Translations under genes and position numbers: made by a program
Assembly: GCA_965214705.1 (NCBI GenBank)
Contig: CBDCCI010000002.1
Span: 2,944,001-3,008,000, forward strand
From: Alphaproteobacteria bacterium
GTDB lineage: Bacteria > Pseudomonadota > Alphaproteobacteria > UBA828
Length of the DNA: 64,000 nucleotides
Reading direction: 5' to 3'
Notes under the pieces: model-generated
What the model saw: the letters and a program-made list of their open reading frames with translations, nothing else
Told to the model about the DNA's origin: nothing
The model's database searches: none
Shown: positions 15,476 to 48,002 of the stretch, piece by piece
Layout: each line of letters opens with the position of its first letter
Numbering within the stretch: position 1 is the stretch's first letter

Positions 15476-15523
15476 GGTCCGGCTAAGCGAGCCCGGCCCG
15501 GCCGGAGAGGCTATGCGGGCAGG

Positions 15524-17119
15524 TCACCGGTCCGAAGCCTCTGGGGTGCGCCAAAAGGGCTTGGCGGCAGCAAAGGCGCGCCAGTCCTCGGCGAGGCTGG
15601 TGCGGGTTTCCTTGCAGACACGGGCGTGCCAGCCGATGACCTGCCCCGCCGCAACGGAGAGCGCCGCGAGATCGCCGCTCTTCCGATGATCGCGAAGCAG
15701 TGCCGTCAGGTGTCGCTCCGCGACAGCGGCATCGTTCAGGCGGCCCAGGCCGCCCTGGAGCCCGCGCGCCGCTCTGATGTAGGCATTGGATTTGCTTTCG
15801 GGGAACTGACCGGCGAAGAATTCGCACGGGTATCGCAGCTTCTTGAGCACGATCCTGAGCCGATGGAGTCCGCTGTCGGAGAGGTTCTCGAAGCCACGGC
15901 CGCGCTTGAAGACCCGCTCGTGGCGCTCGTCGAGAAGACGCCCGGCGAGGCCCGCAAGCGGCCGGTCGAGAACGGCGGGGTCAACCTTCTCCTGCCAGGC
16001 CGCTGTCTCGGTCCAGCGACCGAAGCGAAGCAGGAACGTGGTGAATTCAGGGTCACGCAATGCTTCCGCCCGTCGGTACGCGCGCTCGCGTTGCGCGTCG
16101 GCTGCTGCGGCAAGGCACACGAGGGTCTTGTCGTCCGGCCGCGCTGCCTGGACCGCCGCCAGAATTTCAGTGACGAATACGTCCCAGTCGCGGGCCGGGC
16201 CCAGCAAGTCGATGAGGAGCTTGGCCTCGCGCTCCAGCCACACAAGATCAACGGTCGAGAGAACGGGCTTGAAAGTGGAGAGCATCGAGCGCAGCCGACG
16301 CAGTGCAACACGAAACTGATGCACTCCTTCTGGATCGTCACCGTCCAGCACCGCATCCAGATTCGCCGCACAGTGGTCGGCGCAAGCGAGAAAGATCGCC
16401 CTCAAGGCACTGTCCACCGAGATACCTGGTTCCAGTGCCAGCGCGGGAGCCTTGTGACCGGTATATCCTTCTGCTCCGGCGAGGACGTACCCGCGCTTGG
16501 CTTTGCTGGCCGTCTGAATGCGGAACGACGCGGAGCCCTGCAGAGCCATGGCGAGTTCGTAGAGCGCGCTTGTCGGACCTTCGATCAGCTCAAGTTCGAG
16601 CTCCGAAACCGCATCCCGCTTCCCCTGGGCTTTGATCTCTCCGCTGTCGAGCGCGAGCTCGACCAGGGCGGCCCCGTGATCGAGTGCGGCGACCTCGACT
16701 CTGGCCGTCCGGCGCGTGACATCGGTGCAGAAGACCGGAGTCAGCTCCGCCGGTCCGAGTGGCCCGACCGTGTCGTGGACCGATGGATCTGACGCAAAGG
16801 GGAGGCTGGGCAGTGGCGTCTCGACCGGCCGCGACCATTCCTGGCGTCTGAGGATCAGACCGGGCCCGAAAGGCTCTTTCGACTTCAGGGTCTGGACCAG
16901 ACGTTCCCCGTCTTCACGAATGCGCAGTGTGAAGCCACAGCGGCGCAGGCGGAAGTCGCGCGTATCGTAATAGGTGCTGCGCAGCCGATGCGACGCATAG
17001 TCTGCATCCCCGGATACGGCCGTCCGCCAGCCTCGCTCAAGGGCGGCGGGATTGCCGGCGAGCGTCAGCTCGACCTCAGGCGCCGGCCCACCCTTTGCGG
17101 CTGCAGTTCCCCTTGTCAC
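15524..17119 (-). CDS. CYTH + CHAD domain protein (YgiF-like inorganic triphosphatase)
   Basis: EVELTL, YYDT...L..GFTLRIR, ELELEL, SKAKRGY; CHAD motifs VHQFRVALRRLRS, ARDWDV, LHRLRI..KKLRY. Confidence 0.9.
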   Translation of the reverse strand: MTRGTAAAKGGPAPEVELTLAGNPAALERGWRTAVSGDADYASHRLRSTYYDTRDFRLRRCGFTLRIREDGERLVQTLKSKEPFGPGLILRRQEWSRPVETPLPSLPFASDPSVHDTVGPLGPAELTPVFCTDVTRRTARVEVAALDHGAALVELALDSGEIKAQGKRDAVSELELELIEGPTSALYELAMALQGSASFRIQTASKAKRGYVLAGAEGYTGHKAPALALEPGISVDSALRAIFLACADHCAANLDAVLDGDDPEGVHQFRVALRRLRSMLSTFKPVLSTVDLVWLEREAKLLIDLLGPARDWDVFVTEILAAVQAARPDDKTLVCLAAAADAQRERAYRRAEALRDPEFTTFLLRFGRWTETAAWQEKVDPAVLDRPLAGLAGRLLDERHERVFKRGRGFENLSDSGLHRLRIVLKKLRYPCEFFAGQFPESKSNAYIRAARGLQGGLGRLNDAAVAERHLTALLRDHRKSGDLAALSVAAGQVIGWHARVCKETRTSLAEDWRAFAAAKPFWRTPEASDR

Positions 17120-17417: not shown

Positions 17418-18086
17418 GTGGGGTATTTCGGATCGAAGGCGACGACCGGTCTGAGCCAGGCGCTGATTGCGCTGATGCCCCCGCACTCTGTCTATATCGA
17501 GAGCCACTTGGGGGGCGGGGCGCTGATGAAGCGCAAGCCTGCGGCCGTGCGCTTGATCGGGATTGACCGCGACGAGCGGGCGCTTGAGTCCTTCGACTGT
17601 GGCTACCCGGTGGAGTTGGTGCACGGCTGCGCCCACTCCTTTCTGGCCTCGTTCCCGTTCCTGGGCCCGGAGCTGGTCTACAGCGATCCGCCCTATCTGC
17701 ACGCGACCCGGCGTTCGTCGCAGCGCTACCGCTTCGAGTACGAGGAGGCCGACCACGTCGCGCTCCTCGAACTGCTCAAGGGTCTGCCCTGCCAGGTGAT
17801 GGTCTCGGGCCACCCGTCTGCGCTCTATGACGAGTTGCTGGCGGGCTGGCGCCGGCTGGCGCTGCAGGTGACGACCCAGGCCCAGGTGCGGACCGAGGTG
17901 GTGTGGTTCAACTTCGCGCCCGACCGGGTGCACTGGGCGAGCTGCGCGGGCCGCAACTTCACCGACCGCCAGCGCATCAAGCGCAAGGCGGCCAACTGGG
18001 GCCGGCGCTACGAGGCCATGCCGGCGGGCGAACGCCTGGCGGTGCTGGCCGCGATCATGGCCGTCGAGGCTGACGAGGGTTTGTGA
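17418..18086 (+). CDS. D12-class N6-adenine DNA methyltransferase (short Dam-like), IS passenger
   Basis: GYFGSK, YIESHLGGGA (motif I), LVYSDPPY (motif IV); GAGGAG ribosome-binding site. Confidence 0.85.
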   Translation: MGYFGSKATTGLSQALIALMPPHSVYIESHLGGGALMKRKPAAVRLIGIDRDERALESFDCGYPVELVHGCAHSFLASFPFLGPELVYSDPPYLHATRRSSQRYRFEYEEADHVALLELLKGLPCQVMVSGHPSALYDELLAGWRRLALQVTTQAQVRTEVVWFNFAPDRVHWASCAGRNFTDRQRIKRKAANWGRRYEAMPAGERLAVLAAIMAVEADEGL

Positions 18087-19645
18087 CAGTGTCGCGCTGG
18101 CACGCGGACCTCGCCGCTCACGACGAGGCTTTCGCGTGCCTGCAGGACCTTTTCACCCCACAATCCTTCGCGATGACCGCCGTCAAAGCCATCCGGGAAT
18201 GGGGCCAGGGGCTGCTTCGCCTGAGCGCGGCGCTGGTCAAGGAGAACGACGCGCTGGAGCGGGAGAACGCCCGCTTGCGCGAGCGGATCGCCGAACTTGA
18301 GCGCAGCGCCGCGCTCGACAGCACCACCAGCTCCAAGCCGCCGGCCAGCGACGGCCTGAAGAAGAAGAGCGGAGACCAGGAGAAGAAGAGCGGAGACCAG
18401 GAGAAGCGCACCCGGAGCCGGCGCGGCAAATCCGACAGGCCCAGCGGCGGTCAGCCGGGCCACAAGGGAACCACCCTGGAGCGGACCGAGAACCCGGACC
18501 ACGTCGTGGATCATGATCCGTCCGCCTGTGAGGGCTGCGGCGCGCCGCTGTCGGACGCCGACCGTCACGGAGCCCCCGTCTGCCGGCAGGTCTTCGATGT
18601 GCCCGAGCCGCAGCCCCTCGAGGCCACCGAGCATCGCGGCCATCGCTGCCTCTGCGCCGCCTGCGGTACCATGACAACAGCCGCCTTCCCGAACGGCGTG
18701 AGCGCCCCGGTCCAGTACGGGCCGCGCATCACCGCGTGGGTGACCTACCTGCTGCACGCTCAGTTCATTCCGGAGAAGCGCGTCGCCGAGGTCATGAGCG
18801 ATCTCTTCGCGGTCAAGATCTCAACGGCCACCATCGCCGCCATGGGCCGGCGCACCGCCCGGCGCTTCGAGGGCTTCCTCGATCGTGTCGCAGAGATCAT
18901 CCGCACCGAAGCCCCGGTCAAACACCTCGACGAGACCGGCATCCGCATCGCCGCCCGGACCCATTGGCTCCACGTGCTGTGCACCCCGTTGCTGACCATC
19001 CTGCGCGTCGCCAGCGGGCGCGGCCATTTCGACGAGAAGCTCAACGGCATCGTCATCCATGACGACTATGCCACCTACTTCGCTCTCGAGGGCGTGCGCC
19101 ACGGGGCCTGCAACGCCCATCACCTGCGTGAGCTCCAGGCCCTGATCGAGATCGAGAAGGAAGACTGGGCAACGAGCACGCACCAGCTGCTCTCCCGTGC
19201 CAACAGAGCCGCCCGCTTCGCCCGCAAGAATGATCGCGACGTGCCCGCATCACTGGTCGCCCGCATCTCGCGAGCCTGGGACCGCATCCTCGAACGTGCC
19301 ATCGCCGCTCACGAAGAGATGCCGCCGCTCCAGACCGGAAAGCGCGGACGACAAAAGCGCCGCATCGGTCACAACCTCGCGCTCCGGCTCCAGAAGTACA
19401 AGGAGGGGTGCCTGCGCTTCCTCACCGACCCGCGAACCCCGTTCTCGAACAATGAGGCGGAGCGCGATCTGCGAATGGGCAAGCTGCGTCAGAAAATCTC
19501 AGGCGGCTTCCGCTCGATGCAAGGTGCCTGCGACTTCGCCAACCTGCGGTCCGTCATCGCCACCGCTCGAAAACAGCGCTGGAATGTCCTCGAAACCCTG
19601 GCGCACCCCGATCCCATGCAGCTAATCCCGGTACTGCGCTTCTGA
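18083..19645 (+). CDS. IS66-family transposase (TnpC)
   Basis: SSKPPASDG, GGQPGHKG, zinc finger C..C/C..CG, HLDETG, CNAHHLREL, NNEAERDLR. Confidence 0.95.
   Translation: MTVSRWHADLAAHDEAFACLQDLFTPQSFAMTAVKAIREWGQGLLRLSAALVKENDALERENARLRERIAELERSAALDSTTSSKPPASDGLKKKSGDQEKKSGDQEKRTRSRRGKSDRPSGGQPGHKGTTLERTENPDHVVDHDPSACEGCGAPLSDADRHGAPVCRQVFDVPEPQPLEATEHRGHRCLCAACGTMTTAAFPNGVSAPVQYGPRITAWVTYLLHAQFIPEKRVAEVMSDLFAVKISTATIAAMGRRTARRFEGFLDRVAEIIRTEAPVKHLDETGIRIAARTHWLHVLCTPLLTILRVASGRGHFDEKLNGIVIHDDYATYFALEGVRHGACNAHHLRELQALIEIEKEDWATSTHQLLSRANRAARFARKNDRDVPASLVARISRAWDRILERAIAAHEEMPPLQTGKRGRQKRRIGHNLALRLQKYKEGCLRFLTDPRTPFSNNEAERDLRMGKLRQKISGGFRSMQGACDFANLRSVIATARKQRWNVLETLAHPDPMQLIPVLRF
18361..18406 (+). 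repeat. In-frame 21-bp tandem duplication (KKSGDQE x2) inside the transposase
   Basis: GAAGAAGAGCGGAGACCAGGA twice, followed by GAAG. Confidence 0.85.
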
Positions 19646-19891
19646 AATCCCCCGCCGCTCCGCTCCACGTCAGCGGCACCAGGCCAGAGGCATCAGTCCA
19701 TCACGCGTGAGTGCTCGGCGGAATCAGACCTGGGCAGTTACGATTCTAAGACCAATCTGTCGATCTTGTGACGCGAACGTATGAGTTAATCGTCCTCCAA
19801 TTCGTGAATGTCTTGCATTCTTTCCCAGCGCCGCGTAATCAGTTTATGCGATGATATTTCGCAGCCCCAATTTTCTCCTGTCTCTGACGCT

Positions 19892-21570
19892 GGGTGTAGG
19901 TCTGGCATGGCGATCGTAAGTCATTGATTTAGCGCGATTGGCGGGTGGCCGTAGGCAGCCAGAATCGGGTTTTCGTGACAATCGGCCGGTGCAGGGCCGG
20001 ATTTTGTCACAACGGCGGCATCCAGCAGTGGTGGGTGGGAACGCTCCGCACCGCGAGATGCGGTAGGATGCCGCGCCGACAACCCAACATCAGACCCAAC
20101 ATCAGGAGCGTTCCCATGCCAGTGTCGCAGTCTCTCATCGCCTCGTCCATCGACCTTTTGGGCCTGCCTGCCGAAGTCGCCGAAGCGGTCGCCCAGGTGG
20201 TGGAGTTCTGTCGCGAACAGGCTGGGTCTGACCCGTCTGCCGAGACGTTCGAAACGGTTGAGACGGGGCTGCGGGACGCCATGAACGGCTTGGGTTGCAA
20301 GCTCCTTGGGGCCTTCGCCGAGAGCCGCGACGACGGTGCGAGCCGGATCGAGCGCGACGGACAGAGCTGGGTCCGGGTGGCGGCGACGCCGAAGACGATC
20401 ATGACGACGCTCGGTCCCGTGACCTATCGGCGTGCGCGCTATCGCAGCGGCGCGAGCAGCACGTCGCTGGTGCCGGTGGACGAGAGCCTGGGCCTCATCG
20501 ACGACTACCTGACGCGGCCGGCGGCGCAGCTCGGGCTGATGATGATGGGCCACTGTACGCCGCGTGAAGCGGAGGAGTTCTTCGCGAAAATGGGCGGAAT
20601 GACGCCGTCGGTGAGCACGCTGCAGCGCCTGGCCCTGAGCATGCATGAGCACTGGGAGAGCGTCGCCCCGGAGACGCTGGCCAGCATCCGTGAAACCCAG
20701 GGCATACCGCCCGATGCGGTCACCGCGTCCGTCTCCCTTGACGGCGTCATGGTGGCGCTGCGGGCCGGCGAGGACGGCCGTGCCGAGGCGTGCTGGCGCG
20801 AGGCCTCTTGCGGCACGGTCTCCTTCCACGACGCCGAGGGCCAACGGCTGAAGACCCTCTATCTCGGCCGTATGCCCGAGAGCGGCAAGGCCGCGCTGAA
20901 AGCGCAACTTGCAAGCGAGGTCGCCCATATCCGCCGTGTGAGCCCGAAGATCAGGATCGGCGCCGTCGCCGACGGGGCCGCCGACAACTGGACCTTCCTC
21001 GAAAGCCTCTCGCCCGAGACCGAGGTCATCGACTTCTGGCACGCTTGCGAGCATCTCCGCGTGGCCTCTGACCATGCGGTGGCGCGCCACTGGTTCGAGA
21101 AGCACCGCGAAATCCTGCGCCACGACCCCCGCGGCGTCGACAAGGTGATCCGGGCACTGCGCTACCTCCTGGACAGGGCAAAGGGGGACCCGGCCGAGAT
21201 CGAGCGCGAGCTGGCCTTCTTCCGAAAGCACCGCCATCGGATGCGCTACCACGCCCTGAAGGAAGAGGGCATCGCCATCGGCTCGGGTGTGGTCGAGGCG
21301 GCCTGCAAGACCCTCGTCGCGCAGCGCTTGAAACGCTCGGGCATGCGCTGGCGGATCGACGGCGGGCAGGCGGTTCTGACCTTCCGCGCCCTGATCAAAT
21401 CCGGCCTCTTCGACCGGGCATGGGATGCGCTCATGGACGCCCGATCCGGACCAGCTAACGACAACATCAGCCCAACCGAAGTCCTGGCACTCGCTGCTTG
21501 ACCAAAATGAACCAGCCCATATCCTTTAGCGCCATCACGACTGGCATATCGCCATACGAGAATCACACCC
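19892..21570 (+). mobile_element. ISKra4/ISLre2-like (mutator-like) insertion sequence
   Basis: Inverted repeats GGGTGTAGGTCTGGCATGGCGAT / GGGTGTGATTCTCGTATGGCGAT (18/23); 8-bp target duplication CTGACGCT at 19884-19891 and 21571-21578. Confidence 0.88.
20116..21501 (+). CDS. ISKra4-family (UPF0236-like) DDE transposase
   Basis: SLDGVMV, VADGAADNW, IDFWHACEHL, IGSGVVEAACK..RLKRSGMRW; start position uncertain. Confidence 0.85.
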   Translation: MPVSQSLIASSIDLLGLPAEVAEAVAQVVEFCREQAGSDPSAETFETVETGLRDAMNGLGCKLLGAFAESRDDGASRIERDGQSWVRVAATPKTIMTTLGPVTYRRARYRSGASSTSLVPVDESLGLIDDYLTRPAAQLGLMMMGHCTPREAEEFFAKMGGMTPSVSTLQRLALSMHEHWESVAPETLASIRETQGIPPDAVTASVSLDGVMVALRAGEDGRAEACWREASCGTVSFHDAEGQRLKTLYLGRMPESGKAALKAQLASEVAHIRRVSPKIRIGAVADGAADNWTFLESLSPETEVIDFWHACEHLRVASDHAVARHWFEKHREILRHDPRGVDKVIRALRYLLDRAKGDPAEIERELAFFRKHRHRMRYHALKEEGIAIGSGVVEAACKTLVAQRLKRSGMRWRIDGGQAVLTFRALIKSGLFDRAWDALMDARSGPANDNISPTEVLALAA

Positions 21571-21713: not shown

Positions 21714-22085
21714 ACTGACCACCGGCACGGAATAAGAGCCAAAGCGCTCCTTCAGCGACAACAGCTCTCCTACCTCACTCCAGAATCGAGCCAGACTGGG
21801 TGGCAATACTCGTCATTCCCCCTCTCCGCGTGCATCATGGAGCCAGCGAATCACATCAGAGAACTATGTGCAATTGTAGTGCTATTCCTATTCCTCAAAG
21901 AACAGGTCCACGAGCTGCTCTATGCCTCCACGGGCCAATCAGCCAGCAAAGATTTCGAGTGATTATTGAGCCAGTCTCCCGATCCTTTTGGTCCTCACAG
22001 CCGCACCGGGGATGGTGGCGACGGCACTGAACCGCACAGCAAGCCCCTGAATCGGGCACAGGTCGTAACGTGTGGGTGGGCTGGC

Positions 22086-22706
22086 TTACTCGGCGAGCGG
22101 GTCGATACCGGAGACGATTGCCATGCGAACCAGGTGCGACAGGCTGCCGGCGCCCATCTTGACCATGACGTTCTTGCGGTAGATCTCGACCGTGCGCGGA
22201 CTGATGCCAAGCTCGTAGGCGGCGATCTTGTTGGGTCGACCCATGACCAATTGCTCGAACACCTCGCGCTCGCGGGGGGTCAAGGTGTCGATGCGCCGCT
22301 CAATCTCCGATCTCTCGTTCAAATGGCGTCGCAGGTTCGTTCCTGCCTCGATGGCCCGTTCCACACTCGCAATCAGGCGGTCTCGCGCCACCGGCTTCTC
22401 GATAAAGTCGATTGCGCCCGCGCGCATCGCACGCACGGCCATCGCAACGTCGCCATATGCTGTCACGATGATGACTGGAATCGTCTTCTCTTGTTCGGCC
22501 AGTCGCCGTTGAACTTCAAGCCCGTCGATTCCCGGCATCTTGATGTCCAGGACGACGCATGCAGCATCGTCGTCCGTCACTGCATCCAAGAACGCGGCAC
22601 CTGAGTCAAAGGTAGCCGTTCGGAAGCCCGCAGATTGAAGCAGCGCTTCGAGCGCCTCGCACACGGCCTCGTCGTCATCCACCACAAGAACGCGCGCGGG
22701 TGCCAT
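22086..22706 (-). CDS. fixJ: FixJ-like response regulator (REC + LuxR HTH)
   Basis: VVDDD, LDIKMPGIDG, GAIDFIEKP, LTPREREV..NK..A..LGISPRTVEIYR. Confidence 0.9.
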   Translation of the reverse strand: MAPARVLVVDDDEAVCEALEALLQSAGFRTATFDSGAAFLDAVTDDDAACVVLDIKMPGIDGLEVQRRLAEQEKTIPVIIVTAYGDVAMAVRAMRAGAIDFIEKPVARDRLIASVERAIEAGTNLRRHLNERSEIERRIDTLTPREREVFEQLVMGRPNKIAAYELGISPRTVEIYRKNVMVKMGAGSLSHLVRMAIVSGIDPLAE

Positions 22707-22707
22707 C

Positions 22708-23862
22708 TCAGCCGCTTCCTTCGGAATGGACAGGGACCGAGAAACGGAAGGTCATGCCGCCGCCTTCGCGCGTCTCGGCGGTGATTTCGCCGCCATGTCC
22801 CTCGACGATGGTACGGCATATCGACAGTCCGATGCCGATGCCATCGGGTTTCGAGGAAACGAAGGGCTCGAACAATCGCGGCTCGATATCGGGCGCCAGT
22901 CCCGGCCCCGTGTCGCTCACCTCCACTTCGACAACGCCGTCACGCTGCACAGTGGCAACGACGATCCTGCGCGACTCGCTGGCGCTCAGCGCATCAATGC
23001 TGTTGCGCACCAGATTGAGCACGACCTGTTGAATCTGGATGCAGTCGATCAGGACCGGCGGCAGATCCTGCGAGAGCTCGAGACTCACCTCAATGCCCGC
23101 CGCCGCGGAGCCCAACGCTGCCAGGGCACAAGTGTCCCGGACCAGCCCGTTGATGTCCTCGACCGCCCGGTCGGTATCGCCACGGTGCGTCAAGTCATAC
23201 AGGCGTTGAATAACGTTGGCTGCTCTGTGAGATTGAGCGACAGCCTTGCTCATATATTCCCGAGCCTGTTTCGGGACTCTGCTGTCGCTATCGTCAATGA
23301 GGGCCGCACCAGCCTCGACGAACCCGACGATGGCAGAAAGTGGCTGATTCAGTTCGTGAGCAAGCGCCGAGCCCATCTCTCCCAGGGCGCTTGCGCGCGA
23401 AACCCGCATCAACTCGGACTGCAGCTCCTCGATTCTCTCTTGAGCGCGCTTTCTTGCCGAGAGATCGTGGACCGTGCCAACGAACAACAACTCCCCGCTC
23501 GCTCCACGGAGCTCGCCGACCGACAGTCGCATCGGAAATGTCGATCCATCGCGCTTTTGCCCTACAACATCGCGACCGATGCCGATGATTTTTGCTTGTC
23601 CGGTCCGAACATAATTCTGCACATACATATCGTGATTGTCGCGGTGAGGCTGCGGCATCAGCAACTTTACGTTCTTGCCGAGTACATGCTCCGCCGGATA
23701 TTCGAACAGCCGTTCGCTCGCTGCGTTGTAGAGCAGAACGGTTCCCAGTTGATCGATTACGATCATGCCGTCGATAGCCTGATCGATCGCCTGGCGGAGT
23801 TCCTGCTCAGTGAATCTTGCCGCCAGCTTGCGTTCTCCCCTGCTTGGCGTCGACCCTGGCAT
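22708..23862 (-). CDS. fixL: FixL-like heme-PAS sensor histidine kinase (soluble)
   Basis: PAS LMPQPHRDNHDMY..IIGIGRDVVG..RDGSTFPMRLSVGE with the proximal His; AHELNQPL, NLVRN, DTGPG, GIGLS. Confidence 0.9.
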   Translation of the reverse strand: MPGSTPSRGERKLAARFTEQELRQAIDQAIDGMIVIDQLGTVLLYNAASERLFEYPAEHVLGKNVKLLMPQPHRDNHDMYVQNYVRTGQAKIIGIGRDVVGQKRDGSTFPMRLSVGELRGASGELLFVGTVHDLSARKRAQERIEELQSELMRVSRASALGEMGSALAHELNQPLSAIVGFVEAGAALIDDSDSRVPKQAREYMSKAVAQSHRAANVIQRLYDLTHRGDTDRAVEDINGLVRDTCALAALGSAAAGIEVSLELSQDLPPVLIDCIQIQQVVLNLVRNSIDALSASESRRIVVATVQRDGVVEVEVSDTGPGLAPDIEPRLFEPFVSSKPDGIGIGLSICRTIVEGHGGEITAETREGGGMTFRFSVPVHSEGSG

Positions 23863-24246
23863 TTCAGTATCGACCTTGGTCTTTTCTCCGATTCGACTCC
23901 CAATTGAGCTGGATGGTTTCAGTCCGATGCAGAAACTCATGCCCTGTGTGAGAGCGACTGCGGGCGATACGATCTATGGGCCGATCCCACGCTGCCGGCG
24001 GACGAGGTGAACGCGCGTCCCCATCGAGCCCATGCACGTCGGCCATTCGCTCCCCCGCCTGCACGGCCTCCAGCTCGGCCTGAACCGATCGCTGGGAGCG
24101 CAGGCATCTCGATGACGCACTCCTGCGGCAACCTCGACGCGGGTTGCATCGCCACCCGCACCATACCACAGGACTCGCGATCATGATGGCCGCTGGAACG
24201 CGCTCGAAGCGCTCTCGTAGCTCGGCGGTCGTTTCGTGTGCCAGGT

Positions 24247-25884
24247 TCAATCGATGCGAGGCGGGCCGCCTCGTTGCGTCCGGGCAGGGTGCGGCACTTG
24301 CTCGTCCACGTGTGCGGCGAACCCTGAGCCGGCCTCTGCGTATGCGTTGAATACCGTCGATGCGCCGGCCTGTTCGAGCAGCTTGATCTCGTCCTGGAAC
24401 CTGGCCGTGGCGGCAACCCGACCGCCAAACGAGGCGGCCTTGAGCTGGTCGAGGACCGCGAGGCTGGCCGCCAGGTTCGGCAGCGCCAGCATCACCAGCT
24501 CAAGTGTGTGGGCGGCCCCGACGCGGTCCCAAAAGTCGGCGTCGCTGGGATCGCCGAGCAGCACGTTGCGGCCCGTCGACTGCTGGCGTTCTACCGTGAT
24601 CGGATCGATGTCGATGCCGACCACGGTCGCGCCATGCGATCGATGCATGCTGTCGTAGGTCCCGGTGCCGATACGCCCCATGCCGATGATGGCGATCGTC
24701 GCTCCTCCGATATCGAGCAGCCCGTCGTCGGCGAGACGCCCCGGTCGTTGCAGGCGTTTCCACGTCGTCCGATACCGGGTGTAGATCCGATGGGCAACGA
24801 CGTTGAGTCCCGCGGAGGCGGCGCAGGACAGAGACAACGCAATCGCGATAGCGATCAACCAGCCCCCGTCGATCCAGCCGTTGGCGACGCCGATGGCCGC
24901 GACAATGAGCCCGAATTCGCTGTAGTTGGTCAGGTGCAATGAGGCAAGCAACGAGGTGCGAGCCCGCAGCTTGAACCCCGTCAGCAGACCGAAGAAGAGG
25001 ACCGACTTGAGAAACACGAACGGCGTGATGGCCGCGCCGACCAGAACCGCCTCCATCTCCAGCTGTCCGGACAGTCCGATGGACAGGAAGAAGCCGAGCA
25101 GGAACAGATCCTTGAAGCCCAGCATGGTCTTTGCCAATTCGTCGGCCTTGTTGTGGCTGGCGATCACAACGCCCAGGACGAGGGCACCGAGGTCGCCTTT
25201 CAGCCCAACCAGCTCGAACGCTTCGGCGCCGCCCAAGGCGAGAAGGAAACCGTAGAGGACCAGAAGCTCGCCATGACCGACCCGCTGCAGAACAAGCGTC
25301 AGCACCGGCCGCAGCGGAACGACGAGCAACGCCAGAAGTGCCCATAACGTCGGCCACGTTCCAACCGAGATCGCGAGAAACACGACGGCGGCGAGGTCCT
25401 GCACGATGAGAATACCGATCGCAATTCGTCCATGGAGCGACGTCGTCTCCCCTTTCTCCTCGAGTACCTTCACCACGAAGACGGTGCTGGAAAAGCTCAA
25501 TGCAAAGGCGATCAGCGCAGAGCGCGAAAGATCGAGACCGGAGAGAAAGGACGTGCCCAGAAGGGCCAGGACATAGATGACCGTTCCGAAGACCAGAACG
25601 ACGATCGTCATATGCAACCCGGTGACTGCCCAAACCTGTGGCCGCGCGAAGGTGCGAAGGTTGAGCTTGAGGCCGACGATGAACAGCAACAGGGTGATGC
25701 CGAGGTCCGACAGTTTCTGGAGGATTTCCCCGCTGCCGATTCCGTAAACGTTCAGAACGAACCCGGTCGCGAGGAAGCCGACCAGGGGCGGCAGCCCGAC
25801 GGTCTTGGACAGCAAGCCCATCACGAATGCCATGGCGATCCATGCGACGTCATCCAGGGCGATGGCAATCAACTCGAAATCCAT
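24247..25884 (-). CDS. CPA2 cation:proton antiporter with TrkA-N domain (KefB/C-like)
   Basis: LLLFIVGL, SFSST, GILIVQD, FFLSIG; C-terminal IIGMGRIG Rossmann motif. Confidence 0.88.
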   Translation of the reverse strand: MDFELIAIALDDVAWIAMAFVMGLLSKTVGLPPLVGFLATGFVLNVYGIGSGEILQKLSDLGITLLLFIVGLKLNLRTFARPQVWAVTGLHMTIVVLVFGTVIYVLALLGTSFLSGLDLSRSALIAFALSFSSTVFVVKVLEEKGETTSLHGRIAIGILIVQDLAAVVFLAISVGTWPTLWALLALLVVPLRPVLTLVLQRVGHGELLVLYGFLLALGGAEAFELVGLKGDLGALVLGVVIASHNKADELAKTMLGFKDLFLLGFFLSIGLSGQLEMEAVLVGAAITPFVFLKSVLFFGLLTGFKLRARTSLLASLHLTNYSEFGLIVAAIGVANGWIDGGWLIAIAIALSLSCAASAGLNVVAHRIYTRYRTTWKRLQRPGRLADDGLLDIGGATIAIIGMGRIGTGTYDSMHRSHGATVVGIDIDPITVERQQSTGRNVLLGDPSDADFWDRVGAAHTLELVMLALPNLAASLAVLDQLKAASFGGRVAATARFQDEIKLLEQAGASTVFNAYAEAGSGFAAHVDEQVPHPARTQRGGPPRID

Positions 25885-26325
25885 GGTGCTACTGCCCGTT
25901 TCTCCCCAAGTCCGAACGCCATTCGCTAAGCCACATTGCAGTCATCCGATACTGAAGAAGGCGTCATTGTCGTTAGTGGAAACATGTCGATCCGGGGCAT
26001 CGCGCCGGCACATGGCCCCGGCGATCGGTGACGGCCCTGGTGACGAGCAGGAGGAACAGTCTCTTGTGGGCGAGCAGGGTTCGCGATTCGAAACCGCGCA
26101 CCCGCCGAAGGATAACCCGGCGGTCATACCGAAGCCGGCTAGTAACTTCCGACTCCGAGCACTGGCACGAATTCTCTCCGAGCAGGCGGCGCGTCGAGAC
26201 TAGGCCGTGTATTCACTAACGCAGAAACTGCCTGAATACATGGGATTTTCGTCAGCTGGTCGTTTGAGACATATTTGGGCAAATCATTGTTTGAACAGAA
26301 CTTTCTGCGTTAACGAGTACAGACT

Positions 26326-27147
26326 CTAGTGAGACATCAGGACCGGCACGGTCATCTCGCCCAGAACGTGGCGGGTCACGCCGCCCAGCAGGAGCTCCTT
26401 CAGCCGATGGTGACCGTAAGCACCCATGACGAGCAGTTCGGCACCCTGATCGCTCACGGTAGACAGAAGGATATTGGCAACGTCGATGTCCGAAGACCCG
26501 ACCGTGTGCTGGACTCCTGCGCTGACTTCATGCCGGGTTAGATGAGTGCTCACGTCTGCACCCGGAATGCGCCTGCTGTCGCCTGTGTCGATACCGAAGA
26601 CGACCACCTTGTTCGCCTGCTGCAACAGCGGCAGCGCGTCGGTCAGAGCGCGCTTCGCCTCTCGGCTGCCGTTCCAGGCGACCGTGACCGTCTCCGGACT
26701 GACGCCGAAGGAACCGGTGTACGGCCAAACCAGTACGGGTCCTCCGGCGGCGAGCACCACGCCGTCCGCCAAGGCTCCCACGTTATCATCGTCCTCATCA
26801 TGAGTTTGACCGACAATGGTGATGTCGGCGAAGCGTGCGATAGTCGAGACCGCATCGACCGGATCGCCCGTCATGAGGCGCCATTCGCCCTGCACCGACG
26901 TCTGAGCTATCCGCTCCCCGAACGCCCGTTCGACCTCTGCGGCAGAATTGCGCTGGCGCACGTCCAGCTCCCTCAGAATGTTCGGTGGAATTCGAAAGCT
27001 CGCATACTCCTGATAGAGAAGATCGGGTAGCACGTACACGCCGGTGACCCTGCCCTGGTGGCGTTCCGCCAGCGCGATGGCGGCATCCAGGCGCGCGGGC
27101 GAGCGCTTGTCCCGAGCCAAGTGCACCAGAATGTCCCTGTATGCCAT
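26326..27147 (-). CDS. Universal stress protein
   Basis: MAYRDILVHL..LLVMGAYGHHRLKELLLGGVTR; close paralogue of 516-1340. Confidence 0.92.
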   Translation of the reverse strand: MAYRDILVHLARDKRSPARLDAAIALAERHQGRVTGVYVLPDLLYQEYASFRIPPNILRELDVRQRNSAAEVERAFGERIAQTSVQGEWRLMTGDPVDAVSTIARFADITIVGQTHDEDDDNVGALADGVVLAAGGPVLVWPYTGSFGVSPETVTVAWNGSREAKRALTDALPLLQQANKVVVFGIDTGDSRRIPGADVSTHLTRHEVSAGVQHTVGSSDIDVANILLSTVSDQGAELLVMGAYGHHRLKELLLGGVTRHVLGEMTVPVLMSH

Positions 27148-27249
27148 GATCTTCTCCCGTGTCAGGTCGCGCTCACCGGAATCTCTCGTCGTGAGTGCCA
27201 CCGATTGAATGGTCCCGGGGAGCCGGTTCGCGATGCGTCGTGCTTCCGT

Positions 27250-28281
27250 TCAGGGCCTGTCGACAATGGTAGTTGCGGAGAAGCCGAGCCAGTCCACGCG
27301 TCTGCCGATATCGGCCTCTATCTTCTGGATGAATGCGTGAAGATTGCCCTGCGAGTCTCCCAGTTCCTGCTCGCCGCCCACGAAGTCCAGATGGTTCAGG
27401 ACCACCCGGGTCGGCCGGTTGACCGCAAGCGCCCGCTTCACCAGCTTGGCGTCAAAGCGGGCCGGCCTGCGCAACAAGCCGGTGGACACCGTCAGCTCGG
27501 ACGCTATGTCCCGGCGCCCGGTCTCTTCGGCGATGGCCTCCCACGTCATTTCCCCGACGAGCGGTCCCGTATCCCCGGCCTCCCTGATCGGGAAAGACCG
27601 GACGACCATGGTGATGTCATCGACATCCACGGGGCTCAGTCCGGCTTCGGCCAGCGCGCCGGCCGCCGTCGTGCACCGCGCGGTTGCGTGCGGCCAGCAG
27701 CCGCCGTCCAGAATCGACATTCCGAAGCCGTGCGTGCCTTCGACGACGACCCGGTTGCCGTCTTCGATATGCTGGCGGAGACGCGTGCCGACATCGCCAA
27801 GGAAGCGCGCGAGTCTGGGCTCGTCCGCAGCGAAAACGGAACGCAGAGGGAGGTTTCTGGCCTGACGTGCCACCGACGCCATGATGGCCGCACCCACACC
27901 GGAACCGGCCGAGCCCAGCGTGCTGATGAGCTCTCCCGCCATTTCCCATTCCCGGTGCCGGGCGGTTATGACGTGCGCAAGGCGGCTGACCGAAACGCGC
28001 TCCTCGTCCAGGCCCAGCGTCTCGATTTCTTGCAAGAGAATATCGACATCGATGTACGAACCTGCGGGGAAGGCGACATCGACATCCCTGTCGACGCAGC
28101 AGGCGGGCAATTGGCGGAGCGAGTGCCGCTTTCCGGAGCGGTCGTAGGACGTATGTTCCGTGTCGGGACCACCAACACGTACCGCGACGACTTCCTCTTG
28201 AGACCGTCTCACGAGCTCAAGGGCCGTCTTGCCTTTGCCCTCGGAGCCGAACTGACCTCCAATCACGATCGAAACGGGCAT
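27250..28281 (-). CDS. Short adenylosuccinate-synthetase-family protein, PurZ/PurZ0-like
   Basis: GGQFGSEGKGK (Ser replaces the PurA Asp13), EGTHG, FPIR, ELTVSTGLLRR, NHLD; 343 aa; GAGGTG ribosome-binding site. Confidence 0.8.
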   Translation of the reverse strand: MPVSIVIGGQFGSEGKGKTALELVRRSQEEVVAVRVGGPDTEHTSYDRSGKRHSLRQLPACCVDRDVDVAFPAGSYIDVDILLQEIETLGLDEERVSVSRLAHVITARHREWEMAGELISTLGSAGSGVGAAIMASVARQARNLPLRSVFAADEPRLARFLGDVGTRLRQHIEDGNRVVVEGTHGFGMSILDGGCWPHATARCTTAAGALAEAGLSPVDVDDITMVVRSFPIREAGDTGPLVGEMTWEAIAEETGRRDIASELTVSTGLLRRPARFDAKLVKRALAVNRPTRVVLNHLDFVGGEQELGDSQGNLHAFIQKIEADIGRRVDWLGFSATTIVDRP

Positions 28282-28394
28282 GGCTCACCTCCCCGCGCCT
28301 CGTCCCGAGCGCCGTCGACCTTCGAGTCGATGGGCAGCGGTCCAATCCGAATCGCCCGACTGAATGATGGTCGTGGCCCCTTTGCCGCAAACCG

Positions 28395-28763
28395 TCACGA
28401 GCGAACTCCTGCGGGCTCCGCGTTCGTTGCCGTGAGGCGATCTGGCCTCGTCGCGCCGGCGAGCGGCTCCGCTCGGCAAACGCAGGCCTCTCGCGGTGCA
28501 TCCCTTGGCCCGCCCTTCCGGCTAGGAGCGTCCAGGGCCTGTTCGAGCTGCGCCGCCAACTGCCGCGCCGCTGCCGGGGACAGGACGAAGATGTAATCCC
28601 TGAATTCCCTCTTCCAGTCGGCTTCGCACAAATGAACCGCGACCGTCCGCCCTGTGCCGTCCATCGCCGCGGCCAATTCCCCCACCACACGAACCGGCAG
28701 GCGCGGAAACCCCTTTGGATGCCGGAATCCGTGCTTGATATCGGCAGGAATGCACTTCGTCAT
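28395..28763 (-). CDS. Hypothetical protein
   Basis: ORF with AGAGGA upstream, co-oriented with neighbours; no recognised motif. Confidence 0.45.
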   Translation of the reverse strand: MTKCIPADIKHGFRHPKGFPRLPVRVVGELAAAMDGTGRTVAVHLCEADWKREFRDYIFVLSPAAARQLAAQLEQALDAPSRKGGPRDAPREACVCRAEPLAGATRPDRLTATNAEPAGVRS

Positions 28764-28941
28764 CCTCTGTCCTCTGCTCCGATGCCTCTCGGGCCCGATC
28801 AAGATCAACAGGATCGCCGCGGGGAAGACGATCCCCAGGATGAACCTTCAGGAACCGCCGTGCCCTCGATTGCGTGCCGCGAGAGCACGCAACCTCCCGC
28901 CTCGCAACATCGCGTTCCTGATATGGCGCGCGCAGGCCGGT

Positions 28942-29235
28942 TCACCACGCGACGGGCTCCCCATAGCCGTTGAGGAGCCACTTGATTGCGTAATCGACAG
29001 GCTTCTCGATGGGACAGCGCAGCATCGAGAGCCTGATGAGGGCGTCGCGCCTGGCTTCTTCCTCGGTGACGAAAGTGTCCGCGCTAGAGATGATGCTTTC
29101 GTGGAGCCCCTTGCCGTCTTCCGTACGGCAATGCCTGACGAGCGACCAGACGATAGCCGCGTCTCCCGCCTCGTCCGCGTCCTTCTTCAGGCGCGCCGCC
29201 TGGAGCTCGACGATGTAGTGCCAATCCAGGGCCAT
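28942..29235 (-). CDS. Hypothetical protein (97 aa)
   Basis: ATG overlaps the upstream stop (TGATG), suggesting translational coupling; protein-like composition. Confidence 0.55.
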   Translation of the reverse strand: MALDWHYIVELQAARLKKDADEAGDAAIVWSLVRHCRTEDGKGLHESIISSADTFVTEEEARRDALIRLSMLRCPIEKPVDYAIKWLLNGYGEPVAW

Positions 29236-29501
29236 CAGAAGTTCCTCAGCGTCAGAAGGGCGTTGTGGCAGGCCCAATCCTCGCGGTCCGGGCGCGTGAT
29301 GAGGAGGCGGTCGTCGCCGGCGACGAAGCGCTTCAGTCGATTCCGGAGTTGCCATGCCGATGCTCCCTCGCAGCGAATGCCCCAAAGAGAAGCGAGCACC
29401 TTCCGCCCGGCCATGCTCTTCAGGGCACCAACAAGCTCCGGATAATCGGCATCCGGGCCTGTGAGATCGCAACTCACCAGGTACACCAGCGGCCGATGCA
29501 A
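29235..29501 (-). CDS. Stand-alone Cas2-like / ferredoxin-fold small protein
   Basis: YLVSCDL....DY..L..ALK......LASLW.......QLRNRL..F...DDRLLI pattern of the orphan Cas2-like family; start uncertain. Confidence 0.6.
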   Translation of the reverse strand: MHRPLVYLVSCDLTGPDADYPELVGALKSMAGRKVLASLWGIRCEGASAWQLRNRLKRFVAGDDRLLITRPDREDWACHNALLTLRNF

Positions 29502-29908
29502 TTCGGAAAGGTGGTCCGCGCCTGCGGGTACCGGATGGAACGCAAGCGCGGACCCACGAGACACCGGAGCAGACAGATGGCGTCTCATGCAGTCAGCCGA
29601 TCCAGGATCTTGCCAGGAGAGAAGTGCACGCGAGCAGTCACCCCCTCCCGATTGGGGCGCAGACAGATCCTGCGAACTGGCTGCACTGGAAGCTCTGCCA
29701 TCTTTGCTGTCTTGCCGTCGGTCAGGCCCAGCAAATGGAGGAGGAGAGTCTTGGTCGTGGTCTCTGATCGCACGTGCCAGCCCTTCCTCGACGCCCAGAC
29801 CGCGAAGCGCAGTATTGGAGACAAGAATTCCGGTCCCATTGGGAGGCCGGACAGCTGAGTTACGAGCCGTTTCGCGACATCACTACTAGCTGTTGGGCGT
29901 CCACGGTC

Positions 29909-29946
29909 GCAATTCGGGATTCATACCTAAGCGGAATTGCGTAACG
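29909..29946. promoter_or_regulatory. 38-bp conserved intergenic motif, copy 3
   Basis: GCAATTCGGGATTCATACCTAAGCGGAATTGCGTAACG; contains GCAATTC-N18-GAATTGC dyad. Confidence 0.55.
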
Positions 29947-30543
29947 ATCCCGGTGCTCGCGCTTTCCGCCTCCCCGATCAAGGTCTCGAGCCCGCAGACA
30001 AGCGCGTGGACCACGCCGTCTCCGGTGTGTCACAGGGGTTGCGACCGACGCGTTCGGTGATCGGCAGCGGCGGGATCGGCGATGATCGCCATTAGGGAAC
30101 CTCTGATTTGTCAGGGGTTCCCGTGGCACAGGGATGTGCCACCAATATCGGTGGCTATAAGTCACTGAAAATGTGAGAAAAGCGGAAAGCGCGCTTTCGC
30201 CTTGCGCGTCTGAGAAGTGCAGGAGGCACTTATTCAGACCTTCCTTAGTGCCACCATGGCTGTGATGAACACCGATTTACCAACCATCGCGCCTTTTCCA
30301 GTGACGCACAGCGGCCCGCTGCACCGCGAAGCTTGTCCCGGCCCCATGATGGAGGATCGTCGTGCGGCATCGTAGCCGGGCAGCGCGAATGCTAATAGCC
30401 TCGTCCTTGCCGTCGACCTCTCGCCCGCCAAATTGCCGTTGAAAGGCGTCCTCCGAGGCACGACATCTTTGTCGGTCGCCGCGAGCGTGATACCCGGCGA
30501 CCCGATGATCGAACGAGTGCGATGCCTCCCGAAAGACGACTGA

Positions 30544-31488
30544 ATGGAGTTCAAGGATTACTACGAGACTCTGGGTGTCGGGCGTGACGCGAAGCCGGAC
30601 GAGATCAAGCGTGCCCACCGGCGCCTGGCGCGCAAGCTCCATCCGGACCTGAACAGAGAGCCGGATGCGGAAGACCGCTTCAAGGAGGTCCAGGAAGCCT
30701 ACGAGGTGCTGAAGGACCCGGAGAAGCGCGCGGCCTACGATCGCTTCGGCGCCGACTGGAAGGCGGGCCAGGAATTCCGCCCGCCGCCGGACTGGCAACC
30801 CGATGTCGACTTCGCCGGAGGCGGCTACACCGGGGCCGGCGAGTTCAGCGACTTCTTCGAGGCCCTGTTCGGCGGCGCCGGGCACCGCCGCTCGAGCGGT
30901 GGCTACACGCATCTGCGCATGAAGGGCGAGGACATTCATGCTCGGATCGCCATCTCGCTGGAGGATTCCTTCCGCGGCGCGACGCGCAACCTAACCCTGG
31001 AGGTCCCGCAGTTTGACGACGAGGGCCGCCTGGTGACCCGGCGACACACCCTGAACGTCACGATCCCGAAGGGCGTGGTCCAGGGCCAGCAGATTCGGCT
31101 CCGGGGCCAGGGCGGGCCGGGCCTCGGCGGCGCTCCGGACGGCGACCTTTACCTGGAAATCGTCTTCGCGCCGCACCGGCTGTTCCACGCGACCGGACGC
31201 GACATCCACCTCGATCTGCCGGTGGCGCCGTGGGAAGCCGCGCTCGGCGCCACGGTCACCGCGCCGACGCTCGGCGGCGACGTGGAGCTGAAGGTCCCCG
31301 CGGGCTCGGCGACCGGGAGCCGGCTGCGGCTGAGGGGCCGGGGCTTGCCCGGCACGCTGGCGGGCGACCAGTATGTCGAGATCGAGATACAGACCCCGAA
31401 GCCGGAGACCGACGAGGCGCGCGCACTCTACGAGCGGATGAGCCGGGAGATGGCCTTCGATCCGCGGGCCGGACTCGGGAAGGGTTGA
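30544..31488 (+). CDS. cbpA: Curved DNA-binding protein CbpA (DnaJ class II)
   Basis: MEFKDYY..LHPD J-domain, [11 protein letters not shown]-terminal APWEAALG; followed by cbpM. Confidence 0.92.
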
Positions 31489-38748: not shown

Positions 38749-39114
38749 GCGGTGACGAGCGCCACCGGCGGTGTCAGCGGCGGCACCGGGAGCGGCTCGC
38801 CCTCGATCCCGTTGCCCGGCCCGCGGCCGGTACCGCGTCTTTCATCGCTGCGGCGGTGCCACGCCGCCTGCAGGAAACAAAAATTGAACGAAGCCGCTAC
38901 GCGGAGTTAGCGGCGTAGAGTTCATTCATTTCCGAGGCGTCGCGGGTGCCGTTTGTTCTGTGCGTTCGCTTCCCGGTTGCGTCAGTGGCGCTCCGCCCGT
39001 CGGGTGGCGGATCCCCAGCAGCCTCCCGATCACCAGTGGTTAGCATCGACCCCTGCGACGGACCGTCGCCGGATCGGTCCGGCGGCGCGCCGTCGCGATC
39101 CAGGGAGATCGATA

Positions 39115-39993
39115 ATGACCGGGACCGCGTGCGACACGAACACCGTCACCCCTCTTCGCCAGCGCATGGAGGAGCAGCTCCGCATCGCCAATCTGGCCGC
39201 GAGCACGTCCAAGGCCTACATCTGCGAGATCAAGAACCTGGCCAGGTACTACGACGCCTCGCCGGACGAGCTCGACGCCGAGCAGGTGCGCCAGTGGTAC
39301 CTGGGGCGGATCGACAAGGGGCTCAGTCCGGGCACGACCAACGTCTCCTTCGCCGCGCTGAACTTCCTCTACATCGACACACTCGGCTGGCCTGACCATG
39401 TCGCCGGCCTGCGCTCCCGCAAGAAGCCCGGCAAGCTGCCGCGCTACATGTCGGAGCAGGAGGTCGAGCACCTCATCCTTGCGACACCCGACCTCCGCCA
39501 CCGTGCTGCCATTGTCACCGGCTATGGCGGCGGGCTCCGCATCTCCGAGACCTTGGCCATCAAGGTCGGCGACATCCTGTCGGAGAAGAAGCTGCTGCAC
39601 ATCCCCTCCGGCAAAGGCGGCACCGAGAGAATGGCACCGTTGCCGGACATCGTCATCCACTACTTGCGCGTCTACTACAGGAACATCTGGCCGCGTCCGA
39701 CGAGCTGGCTCTTCTACGGCGTCTCGCTCGACAGGCCCATCGCAACGGAGACCTTGCAGGCCGCCTTCAGGAGGGCGCGCGACATTGCCGAGCTCGACCG
39801 CAGCTACACCTTCCATTGCCTGCGCCATTCGGCGGCGACCCATCTCCTCGAGCGCGGCGGCGATATCGAGGTGATCCGGGACATGCTCGGCCATCGAAGC
39901 GCGAACACGACCCGTCACTACGCCCGCGTCACCGGCAAGATGTTCGAGGGCCTCGACCACCCGATCTCAGGCTTCGCAGCGTTGCGCAACTGA
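39115..39993 (+). CDS. Tyrosine recombinase of the type paired with IS91-like transposases
   Basis: N-terminal SAM-like domain, YGGGLRISE, GKGGTER, HCLRHS.ATHLLE.G, LGH, T..Y. Confidence 0.9.
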   Translation: MTGTACDTNTVTPLRQRMEEQLRIANLAASTSKAYICEIKNLARYYDASPDELDAEQVRQWYLGRIDKGLSPGTTNVSFAALNFLYIDTLGWPDHVAGLRSRKKPGKLPRYMSEQEVEHLILATPDLRHRAAIVTGYGGGLRISETLAIKVGDILSEKKLLHIPSGKGGTERMAPLPDIVIHYLRVYYRNIWPRPTSWLFYGVSLDRPIATETLQAAFRRARDIAELDRSYTFHCLRHSAATHLLERGGDIEVIRDMLGHRSANTTRHYARVTGKMFEGLDHPISGFAALRN

Positions 39994-39999
39994 CGGCGC

Positions 40000-40178: not shown

Positions 40179-40239
40179 ATCGCGGTAGGGAAGCGGGTTG
40201 CCCCGCTCCCCCCGCGCAGATCCGGACGTGCCCGCTAAG

Positions 40240-47991: not shown

Positions 47992-48002
47992 ACCCGCCAA
48001 TC

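Follow-up and report, generated by a model that had tools for sequence, protein, structure and literature searches.

An orphan Ser-type, PurZ-like member of the adenylosuccinate synthetase family in an alphaproteobacterial stress island

The 64,000-nucleotide stretch considered here (the window) comes from an Alphaproteobacteria bacterium of the UBA828 lineage (GenBank assembly GCA_965214705.1, contig CBDCCI010000002.1, positions 2,944,001 to 3,008,000 of the forward strand) and carries, in order, genes for FixJ, FixL, a Kef-type antiporter, a tandem universal stress protein (USP) and a 343-residue protein of the adenylosuccinate synthetase (PurA) family, which is the target of this analysis; beyond it lie ~2.2 kb without a convincing gene, and then CbpA, a CbpM-like protein, UPF0149 and a cold-shock protein. 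The target sits in a block of stress genes (USP, Kef, FixLJ) within an island rich in mobile elements. The first-pass annotation, made by a model from the letters of the sequence, had singled it out as an orphan relative of PurZ and PurZ0, the phage enzymes of the 2-aminoadenine (Z-base) pathway, and had proposed that it makes Z or another modified purine nucleotide in the cell, or else is a decaying relic. I will argue that the target is an intact short-form protein of the adenylosuccinate synthetase fold and a relative of the phage Z-base enzymes, that it belongs to a third, bacterial family apart from both PurZ and PurZ0 in which Ser likewise stands at the position of the catalytic Asp13 (hereafter Ser-type), and that it has lost both partner genes that accompany nearly all of its relatives, while carrying changes in its acceptor pocket that are conserved among its closest kin.

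At 343 residues the target belongs to the length class of the Pyrococcus horikoshii PurA (339-340 residues) rather than that of the genome's own PurA frame (431), which bears out the short, archaeal-like length first remarked upon. It matches Pfam PF00709 with 122.5 bits and PHROG 1211 with 192.7 bits, and the best-scoring NCBIfam model is NF003295, the archaeal-type short PurA (204.2 bits, under the curated cut-off of 368), with NF038379 for PurZ (182.9 bits against 300) and the canonical PurA models TIGR00184 (145 against 395.55) and NF002223 (113.4 against 402) likewise under their cut-offs; a canonical purA on another contig of the genome reaches 509.8 bits, over its own. In a sequence search of the PDB the best match was 7vf6 (133 bits, E 1.3e-37), followed by P. 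horikoshii PurA (124 bits) and S-2L PurZ (77 bits); the available text of PMC12884076 identifies 7vf6 as the PurZ0 of Gordonia phage Archimedes. An AF2 model of the target (pLDDT 83.3, pTM 0.84) has as its best Foldseek match 5k7x (TM score 0.82), with 7vf6 at 0.81 and the phiVC8 PurZ 6fko at 0.78, and its scores of 0.70-0.82 to many PurA structures, the entries of the K16Q, R143L and R303L mutants among them, place it in the adenylosuccinate synthetase fold. Relatives are abundant: a word-indexed search returned 713, the best 120 of which are 57-92% identical, ~347 residues long and in several cases encoded on multi-megabase contigs, with many bacterial Ser-type members at 57-64% identity to the target, and an exhaustive search returned 3661 representative clusters at E<=1e-3 and 291 at E<=1e-30. 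The position of Asp13 is occupied by Ser in 119 of the 120 close proteins and, among 150 representatives, by Ser in 111, Gly in 4, Asp in 3, Leu in 1 and His in 1, with no pattern match in the other 30.

A tree of 81 rows (IQ-TREE quick search, LG+C20, Shimodaira-Hasegawa-like approximate likelihood ratio test (SH-aLRT) support only), rooted on canonical PurA, was built from my own selection of 26 of 80 genome loci, 9 of the 120 close proteins and 33 of the 150 representatives, to which nine phage proteins, a copy from another genome of the genus (G002) and two canonical PurA sequences were added. The Ser-type sequences exclude the short Asp-type representative (SH-aLRT 99) and comprise a phage PurZ clade, a PurZ0 clade, a large bacterial clade (93) and one of kinase fusions; the tree does not settle the branching order of these four. 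The target is excluded both from the PurZ clade (100, or 96 with Bacillus phage BpsS-140) and from the PurZ0 clade (99, 8 rows) and stands in an 8-row orphan subclade (100) nested among cassette-bearing sequences (enclosing nodes 92 and 99). The description of the target as PurZ/PurZ0-like therefore holds for its signature residues and not for membership of either clade, and its proposed separateness from canonical PurA, with which it does not cluster, is upheld. Two proteins with Asp at the Asp13 position, P0197 and P0267, have long branches (1.34) within the bacterial Ser-type clade and may be reversions or misplacements.

The relatives share a remarkably constant setting. With one genome taken per species, a pattern scan gave 349 matching stretches, 316 of which encode relatives; the 80 best loci, used from here on, belong to Alpha- and Gammaproteobacteria, Binatia, Acidobacteriota, Cyanobacteriota, Nitrospirota, NC10, Desulfobacterota, Chloroflexota and other groups. 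Partners were called by clustering of the flanking open reading frames (ORFs) and re-checked by tblastn. Here the Ser-type gene is the middle member of a tight same-strand operon, in the order partner A, PurZ-like gene, partner C, with partner A (~630-700 residues) directly upstream in 72 of the 80 loci and partner C (~340-400 residues) directly downstream in 78. The two loci lacking partner C are one on a 1,985-bp contig (L070) and L021, a same-genus relative of the window; in six further loci C is present and A was not within the fetched flanks, one of them offering only 1.8 kb upstream. A metagenome scan yielded seven loci, 46-57% identical and all of cassette type, with both partners in all seven. 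Among 80 viral contigs, where the best identity was 41%, partner C was found in none, an A-like gene in one short fragment and the kinase part only in one.

Partner A combines a DEDD-type exonuclease domain (PF13482), a middle domain that is highly conserved and weakly matches DUF429, and an AdkA-like nucleotide kinase; in its AF2 model (pLDDT 86.6) the kinase domain reaches a TM score of 0.84 to 3lw7, and in the middle domain (residues ~245-440 of the L028 protein) the HDE...FFW stretch forms the helix of a beta-beta-beta-alpha-beta-alpha, RNase-H-like arrangement. The Foldseek top 50 for this model include kinases and DEDD exonucleases and no ADP-ribosyltransferase (ART) structure. In partner C a domain of the dCTP-deaminase/dUTPase fold (profile E 1.9e-17 to 8y1w) precedes a hydrophobic helix and a coiled coil; a literature search on PDB entries 8Y1W, 9LN0 and 9LN3 found nothing relevant. 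Compared with the dUTPase-like proteins of phage Ghobes it showed no similarity to gp53 and an hhalign probability of only 39.5% to gp55, and given these values no specific relationship to DutZ is claimed. The three components also occur fused, as PurZ-like::partner C in P0124 (644 residues; hhalign 99.95%, E 2.4e-38) and as kinase::PurZ-like in P0218, P0221, P0242 and P0250 (511-561 residues), and at L025:8333-10189 a single open frame reaches from within the PurZ-like gene into partner C, perhaps through a further fusion or a frameshift. PADLOC (2023), in which the cassette is not included, gave no match for the target, a cassette-type relative or two of the fusion proteins.

Against this background the target is an orphan in a stronger sense than the first-pass annotation meant, as the two genes that accompany nearly all of its relatives are gone. 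Neither partner was found in the genome of the window (98.47% complete, 8.72% contamination, 3 contigs), searches of the window with tblastn (E<=1) and with profile hidden Markov models revealed no remnant of either, and there is no dCTP-deaminase/dUTPase-like gene beside the target or elsewhere in the window. A short paralogue occurs in only two of the 20 other genomes of the genus: the copy in G007 is 87% identical, lies on the same contig as L021 and is also without partners, and the copy in G002 is 42% identical and lies inside a complete cassette. The window and L021 are syntenic, with ~87% DNA identity over 22000-29046, and are counted as one observation. The orphan subclade as a whole comprises nine sequences (the target, P0001-P0006, P0011 and L021) that are 72-92% identical.

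It is the active site that sets this subclade apart. The target was aligned with E. coli PurA (NC_000913), the genome's PurA, a short Asp-type relative, four PurZ0-type and three PurZ sequences, and these alignments confirm every change that had been read off by eye: Asp13 to Ser, Thr271 to Ile, Gly298 to Thr, Arg303 to Leu, TKLD to NHLD with Asp333 kept, and the further oddities NAGH to DTEH, GTT/GST to GSA and EGAQG to EGTHG. They add one change that had gone unlisted, Val273 to Glu. In the E. coli enzyme IMP is held at its 5'-phosphate by Asn38 and Thr129, and contacted at its base by Gln224 and at its ribose by the backbone of Val273; Thr300 and Thr301 bind aspartate, and Asp333 sets the specificity for guanine. 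Arg303 binds aspartate and ribose, according to the available text of PMC8342488. Asn38 and Gly40 are identical in all references and in 72 of 72 cassette-verified proteins, and within the orphan subclade they are replaced by Asp in 7 of 8 and by Glu in 8 of 8 proteins, respectively. Thr129 and Val273 are equally invariant in the references and in the 72 cassette proteins, and are Ala in 7 of 8 and Glu in 8 of 8 of the orphan-clade proteins, while the Gln224 equivalent is His in the target, P0001-3, P0006, P0011 and L021 and Gln in P0004 and P0005. The cassette-family pocket N-S-G-H / G-S-T / Q / R-V-A has in this way become D-T-E-H / G-S-A / H / R-E-A, a combination found, with a crude pattern, in 7 of 270 collected homologues. 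Across the alignment, 96 columns are at least 90% conserved in the 72 proteins with both partners, and nine of these (19, 38, 39, 40, 126, 129, 273, 275 and 300 in E. coli numbering) are re-fixed in the eight subclade proteins. What the target keeps is the P-loop, the His41 equivalent, Arg143, the Arg305/306 pair and Asp333. The Asp333 equivalent is also kept in PurA, in the bacterial family and in the PurZ0-type phage proteins, and is Asn or Gln in the three PurZ references; the motif around it is S/T-M/F-x-D in five PurZ0-type phage proteins and N-H-L-D in the target, which combines Ser13 with a guanine-nucleotide-type Asp333 equivalent, as PurZ0 does. Residues 185-200 of the target form a loop of low confidence in the AF2 model.

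Table 1. Features of the target and the window, and examples of the parent cassette
Feature	Position	Strand	Basis
Orphan Ser-type (PurZ-like) adenylosuccinate-synthetase-family gene, 343 residues	27250..28281	-	ORF with ATG start, PF00709, AF2 model, dN/dS
Shine-Dalgarno GGAGG, 6 nucleotides 5' of the target ATG	28288..28292	-	read from sequence
P-loop GGQFGSEGKGK, residues 8-18; Ser13 for catalytic Asp13, rest of the nucleoside triphosphate loop intact	28228..28260	-	alignments
GGPDTEHT, residues 37-44; Asn38 to Asp and Gly40 to Glu around the kept catalytic His41 equivalent (His43)	28150..28173	-	alignments
GSAGSG, residues 123-128; Thr129 equivalent is Ala125	27898..27915	-	alignments
EGTHGFGMS, residues 181-189; Gln224 equivalent is His184	27715..27741	-	alignments
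FPIREA, residues 230-235; Ile at Thr271 (Ser-type signature), Val273 to Glu (orphan-specific)	27577..27594	-	alignments
ELTVSTGLLRR, residues 262-272; Gly298 to Thr, Thr300 equivalent to Ser, Arg303 equivalent to Leu, Arg305/306 pair kept	27466..27498	-	alignments
LNHLD, residues 295-299; base-specificity motif, Asp333 equivalent kept	27385..27399	-	alignments
Tandem universal-stress-protein gene directly downstream of the target	26326..27201	-	Pfam Usp, 2 stretches
IS66-family and other transposase-like genes	17418-21501 (17.4-21.5 kb)		
IS66-family transposase	18083-19645		
Second mobile-element zone	38953-54319		
Five tyrosine recombinases, 'phage integrase' Pfam family	starts 38953, 44503, 46603, 51654, 52847		
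DDE transposase	40323-42062		
Group II intron reverse transcriptases, one full and two fragmentary	42233-44376, 48056-48805		
Cassette examples (L028 from Hoeflea, L053 from Mesorhizobium)	L028:6130-10123, L053:6142-10168, G002:C6:943861-947411		

The gene itself looks well kept. Its GC content at third codon positions (0.77) is similar to that of the neighbouring genes, and against the L021 orthologue its ratio of nonsynonymous to synonymous substitution rates (dN/dS) is 0.225, the corresponding values for the neighbours being 0.158 for USP, 0.142 for Kef, 0.228 for FixL and 0.142 for FixJ; the target is thus maintained under purifying selection. A full-length frame with the same replacements is kept in eight of the nine subclade sequences.

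The gap between the target and the USP gene, whose true start is likely the ATG at 27147, preceded by a GGAG-type site, is ~100 nucleotides, and because no terminator-like site was found between the two genes and such sites flank the pair at 28835-28810 and 26133-26116 (a weak signal, with six sites found against 4.4 expected), they are possibly co-transcribed. No sigma-70-like promoter was found in 24000-30600, an Rfam scan of 26000-30600 at E<=1 gave no match, the 279-nucleotide leader of the target folds no better than shuffled sequence (z = +1.0), and the window holds no FixK/FNR-type box with at most one mismatch to the consensus TTGAT-N4-ATCAA. Upstream of the target, 28296-29046 is ~87% identical in DNA to L021 and shows no Pfam match, Rfam match or unusual RNA folding, and the ORFs of this side, including 28395-28808 and 28942-29472, are without Pfam match. 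A 137-residue ORF here was rejected as a gene, its protein frame being ~67% identical to L021 where the DNA is ~87% identical. The ORF ending at 28942 has ~40 C-terminal residues that are 93% conserved and may, to judge from this, be a real gene.

Mobile elements bracket the stress block on both sides (Table 1), among them a UPF0236 transposase-like ORF, and GC content at 22-30 kb (0.60-0.63) is below that of either side. The statement that the window holds no phage genes stands for structural genes, none of which was seen among the 40 ORFs examined, and not for the five tyrosine recombinases of the 'phage integrase' family. No nucleotide-metabolism neighbour was found among the 40 window ORFs run through Pfam, datZ, mazZ and dpoZ not having been searched gene by gene. 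Farther out, the minus strand at 11599-17119 encodes an ornithine transcarbamylase-like protein with an N-terminal extension, HSP20, a Na/Pi cotransporter and a CYTH-CHAD protein, all stress or phosphate-related, and a stretch of ~4.5 kb at 54320-58870, markedly lower in GC (0.55-0.59) and with no ORF passing the codon-position GC filter, is possibly foreign or non-coding DNA.

The best explanation that I can offer, held tentatively and with rather less confidence than the observations above, is that the target is a neofunctionalised orphan that probably still binds a nucleoside triphosphate (NTP) and whose acceptor may have changed. The fold, the family placement, the partner loss, the conserved changes in the pocket and the purifying selection are observed, the NTP use, the new acceptor and the co-transcription inferred. 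On this view the gene goes back to the PurZ-like member at the centre of the widespread bacterial cassette; on the way to the genome of the window it parted from both partners, and its acceptor pocket was rewritten (Asn38 to Asp, Gly40 to Glu, Thr129 to Ala, Val273 to Glu, the Thr300 equivalent to Ser, Arg303 to Leu and usually Gln224 to His) with the NTP-handling elements left in place. The loss of these pocket residues together with three new acidic side chains would disfavour a nucleoside monophosphate and aspartate as substrates, and the complete set of NTP-handling residues suggests that GTP is still bound and phosphoryl groups still transferred. The protein would then still bind a purine NTP, most likely GTP, and probably hydrolyse it or transfer its phosphate, would no longer take a nucleoside 5'-monophosphate and L-aspartate in the canonical manner, and would use a different acceptor, making neither adenylosuccinate nor the Z-base precursor.

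Several points weigh against this explanation. The dN/dS value derives from one pair within the genus; of the nine orphan-clade sequences only two, both of one genus, have a known genomic context, so that partner loss and pocket remodelling are tied together only there; and one subclade member, P0011 (295 residues), is 90% identical over its first ~240 residues and then runs into an unrelated tail, an apparent C-terminal frameshift that would make it either a real pseudogene or an assembly error. The substrate-binding roles ascribed to Asn38, Thr129, Gln224 and Val273 are those of the E. coli enzyme, and would apply to the target by analogy. Finally, the three acidic side chains gained near the active site could just as well signify that catalysis has been lost.

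This last point leads to the rival that fares best, though I consider it rather unlikely, namely that the target is a non-catalytic pseudoenzyme that has retained the fold and perhaps GTP binding, has lost the ligase chemistry and serves as a sensing or regulatory partner, for example of the adjacent USP. The replacement of the reference-invariant Asn38, Gly40, Thr129 and Val273, and mostly of Gln224, under purifying selection would be in keeping with such a role, as would the position of the gene ~100 nucleotides upstream of the tandem USP gene with no terminator-like site between them; yet a pure scaffold would have no need of the catalytic His41 equivalent, the P-loop Lys residues, Arg143 and Arg305/306, all of which are kept, and the replacements are specific and conserved rather than scattered. 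A bolder proposal, which I would put forward as doubtful, is that the target is a neofunctionalised, GTP-using ligase of the PurZ family in a FixLJ-linked stress island, with a hitherto unknown modified purine or non-nucleotide metabolite as its product, and that its parent cassette is an undescribed cellular system for 2-aminoadenine-type or other succinylated purine deoxynucleotides.

An active PurZ/PurZ0-type enzyme, joining dGMP (or GMP) to aspartate with GTP and so making cellular 2-aminoadenine nucleotides, is a little more doubtful still. The Z synthesis of the first-pass annotation finds support in part only, from the signature itself, with Ser for Asp13, Ile for Thr271, Thr for Gly298, the 'T-T/S-V-T'-type motif and a PurZ0-like Asp333, and to this the PurZ0 7vf6 as best PDB sequence match (E 1.3e-37) and the 192.7 bits to PHROG 1211 may be added. 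Set against them are the position of the target outside both phage clades, its 182.9 bits against a PurZ cut-off of 300, the change of Asn38, Gly40, Thr129 and Val273 from what all seven PurZ0/PurZ-type references have, Leu in place of the Arg303/Lys equivalent, and the lack of an adjacent dUTPase-like, MazG-like or kinase partner. As DTEH, GSA, THG and REA replace reference-invariant residues, a PurZ-like reaction of dGMP with aspartate, and with it the proposed Z synthesis, is unlikely for the target.

It is quite improbable that the target is a decaying relic of a disrupted cassette whose stop codon is still to come: both partners have been lost, conserved residues have been replaced, the region is full of transposases and recombinases, and the relative P0011 appears frameshifted, but the full-length frame persists in eight of nine subclade sequences with the same replacements, and a dN/dS equal to that of the neighbouring FixL gene, a good ribosome-binding site and normal codon-position GC speak against decay. 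An additional canonical adenylosuccinate synthetase, with the target as a stress-induced isozyme of PurA that supplies AMP precursors, can be dismissed as highly improbable, for although the target belongs to PF00709 and its relatives are named 'adenylosuccinate synthetase' in the sources, the genome has a canonical purA (509.8 bits), the target scores 145 against 395.55 for TIGR00184, and it lacks the Asp13 that is 99% conserved in the PurA group according to the available text of PMC12884076.

PurZ-type enzymes have so far been described as a phage invention with a few archaeal relatives. The branch of this Ser-type group found here is cellular and large, thinly spread over many bacterial phyla and locked into a conserved, uncharacterised nucleotide-enzyme cassette, and 'adenylosuccinate synthetase' is a misleading annotation for the bacterial Ser-type genes. 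If the reading of the parent cassette is true, an exonuclease/RNase-H-like/kinase protein, a Ser-type PurZ-like enzyme and a membrane-anchored dUTPase-like protein would together make 2-aminoadenine-type or other succinylated purine deoxynucleotides, perhaps for phage conflict or for DNA or nucleotide-pool modification, and PurZ-type chemistry would be native to bacteria, beyond their viruses. The target, with its partners gone, its acceptor pocket rewritten and its NTP site kept, would provide a natural experiment within this family, and it raises the questions of what chemistry the bacterial cassette performs and how an adenylosuccinate synthetase scaffold switches substrate. The fold and the superfamily are already known. 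The literature search turned up no publication that describes a PurZ-like family encoded on bacterial chromosomes or a role in defence, and by the searches made the bacterial Ser-type branch, its cassette as a PurZ-like system and the partner-less remodelled subclade were found to be undescribed in print.

The closest published counterpart of the cassette is the operon of Lmac_3114, which the available text of PMC12522546 describes as a DarT-like ART domain with motifs Hxx, FFW and xxE, in operons of Rhizobium and Mesorhizobium, with an AAA domain in some and an adenylosuccinate synthetase domain, taken there as ordinary purine synthesis, in 60% of the neighbourhoods. These motifs match the conserved 'HDE...FFW...E' of the partner A middle domain, and by the analogy of motifs, organisms and domain content only, this operon is very probably the parent cassette family of the target; that text makes no mention of a Ser-type, PurZ-like signature or of partner C, the modelled middle domain of partner A is not ART-like, and the target has none of that operon's neighbours. 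The archaeal-type short PurA (P. horikoshii 5K7X/2D7U; NF003295) shares with the target its length class, Asp333 and a P-loop that is PurA-like apart from Ser13, and is its best structural match, whereas the target is without Asp13, Thr271, Gly298 and the R-R-R-R run. PurZ (phiVC8 6FM1/6FKO, S-2L 7ODX), an ATP/dATP user according to the available text of bioRxiv 10.1101/2025.10.22.683976, resembles the target in structure (TM score 0.75-0.79), in Ser for Asp13 and in its P-I-R-V and T-T-V-T signatures, and differs in sequence (25-29% identity), in having G-S-T-G-K-G where the target has G-S-E-G-K-G-K, and in the loss of Asp333 (N-F-x-N/Q against N-H-L-D); the retention of Asp333 in the PurZ0-type proteins and its loss in PurZ fit the direction of that preprint. 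The 'PurZ group' of PMC12884076, as its available text defines it, holds 147 phage and four archaeal sequences, and Ser occupies the Asp13 position in 100% of the 147. PurZ0 (7VF6), the GTP-type 2-aminoadenylosuccinate synthetase, is phage-borne and accompanied by the dUTPase-like dutZ in 98 of 98 genomes according to the same text, whereas the target is chromosomal and without a dutZ-like neighbour; PurZ0 keeps N-A-G-H, G-S-T, Q224 and R-V-A where the target has D-T-E-H, G-S-A, H and R-E-A, and forms a separate clade at ~29-35% identity. What PurZ0 and the target have in common is the short-form fold (TM score 0.81), Ser for Asp13, Ile271, a T-T-V-T-type motif and the Asp333 equivalent.

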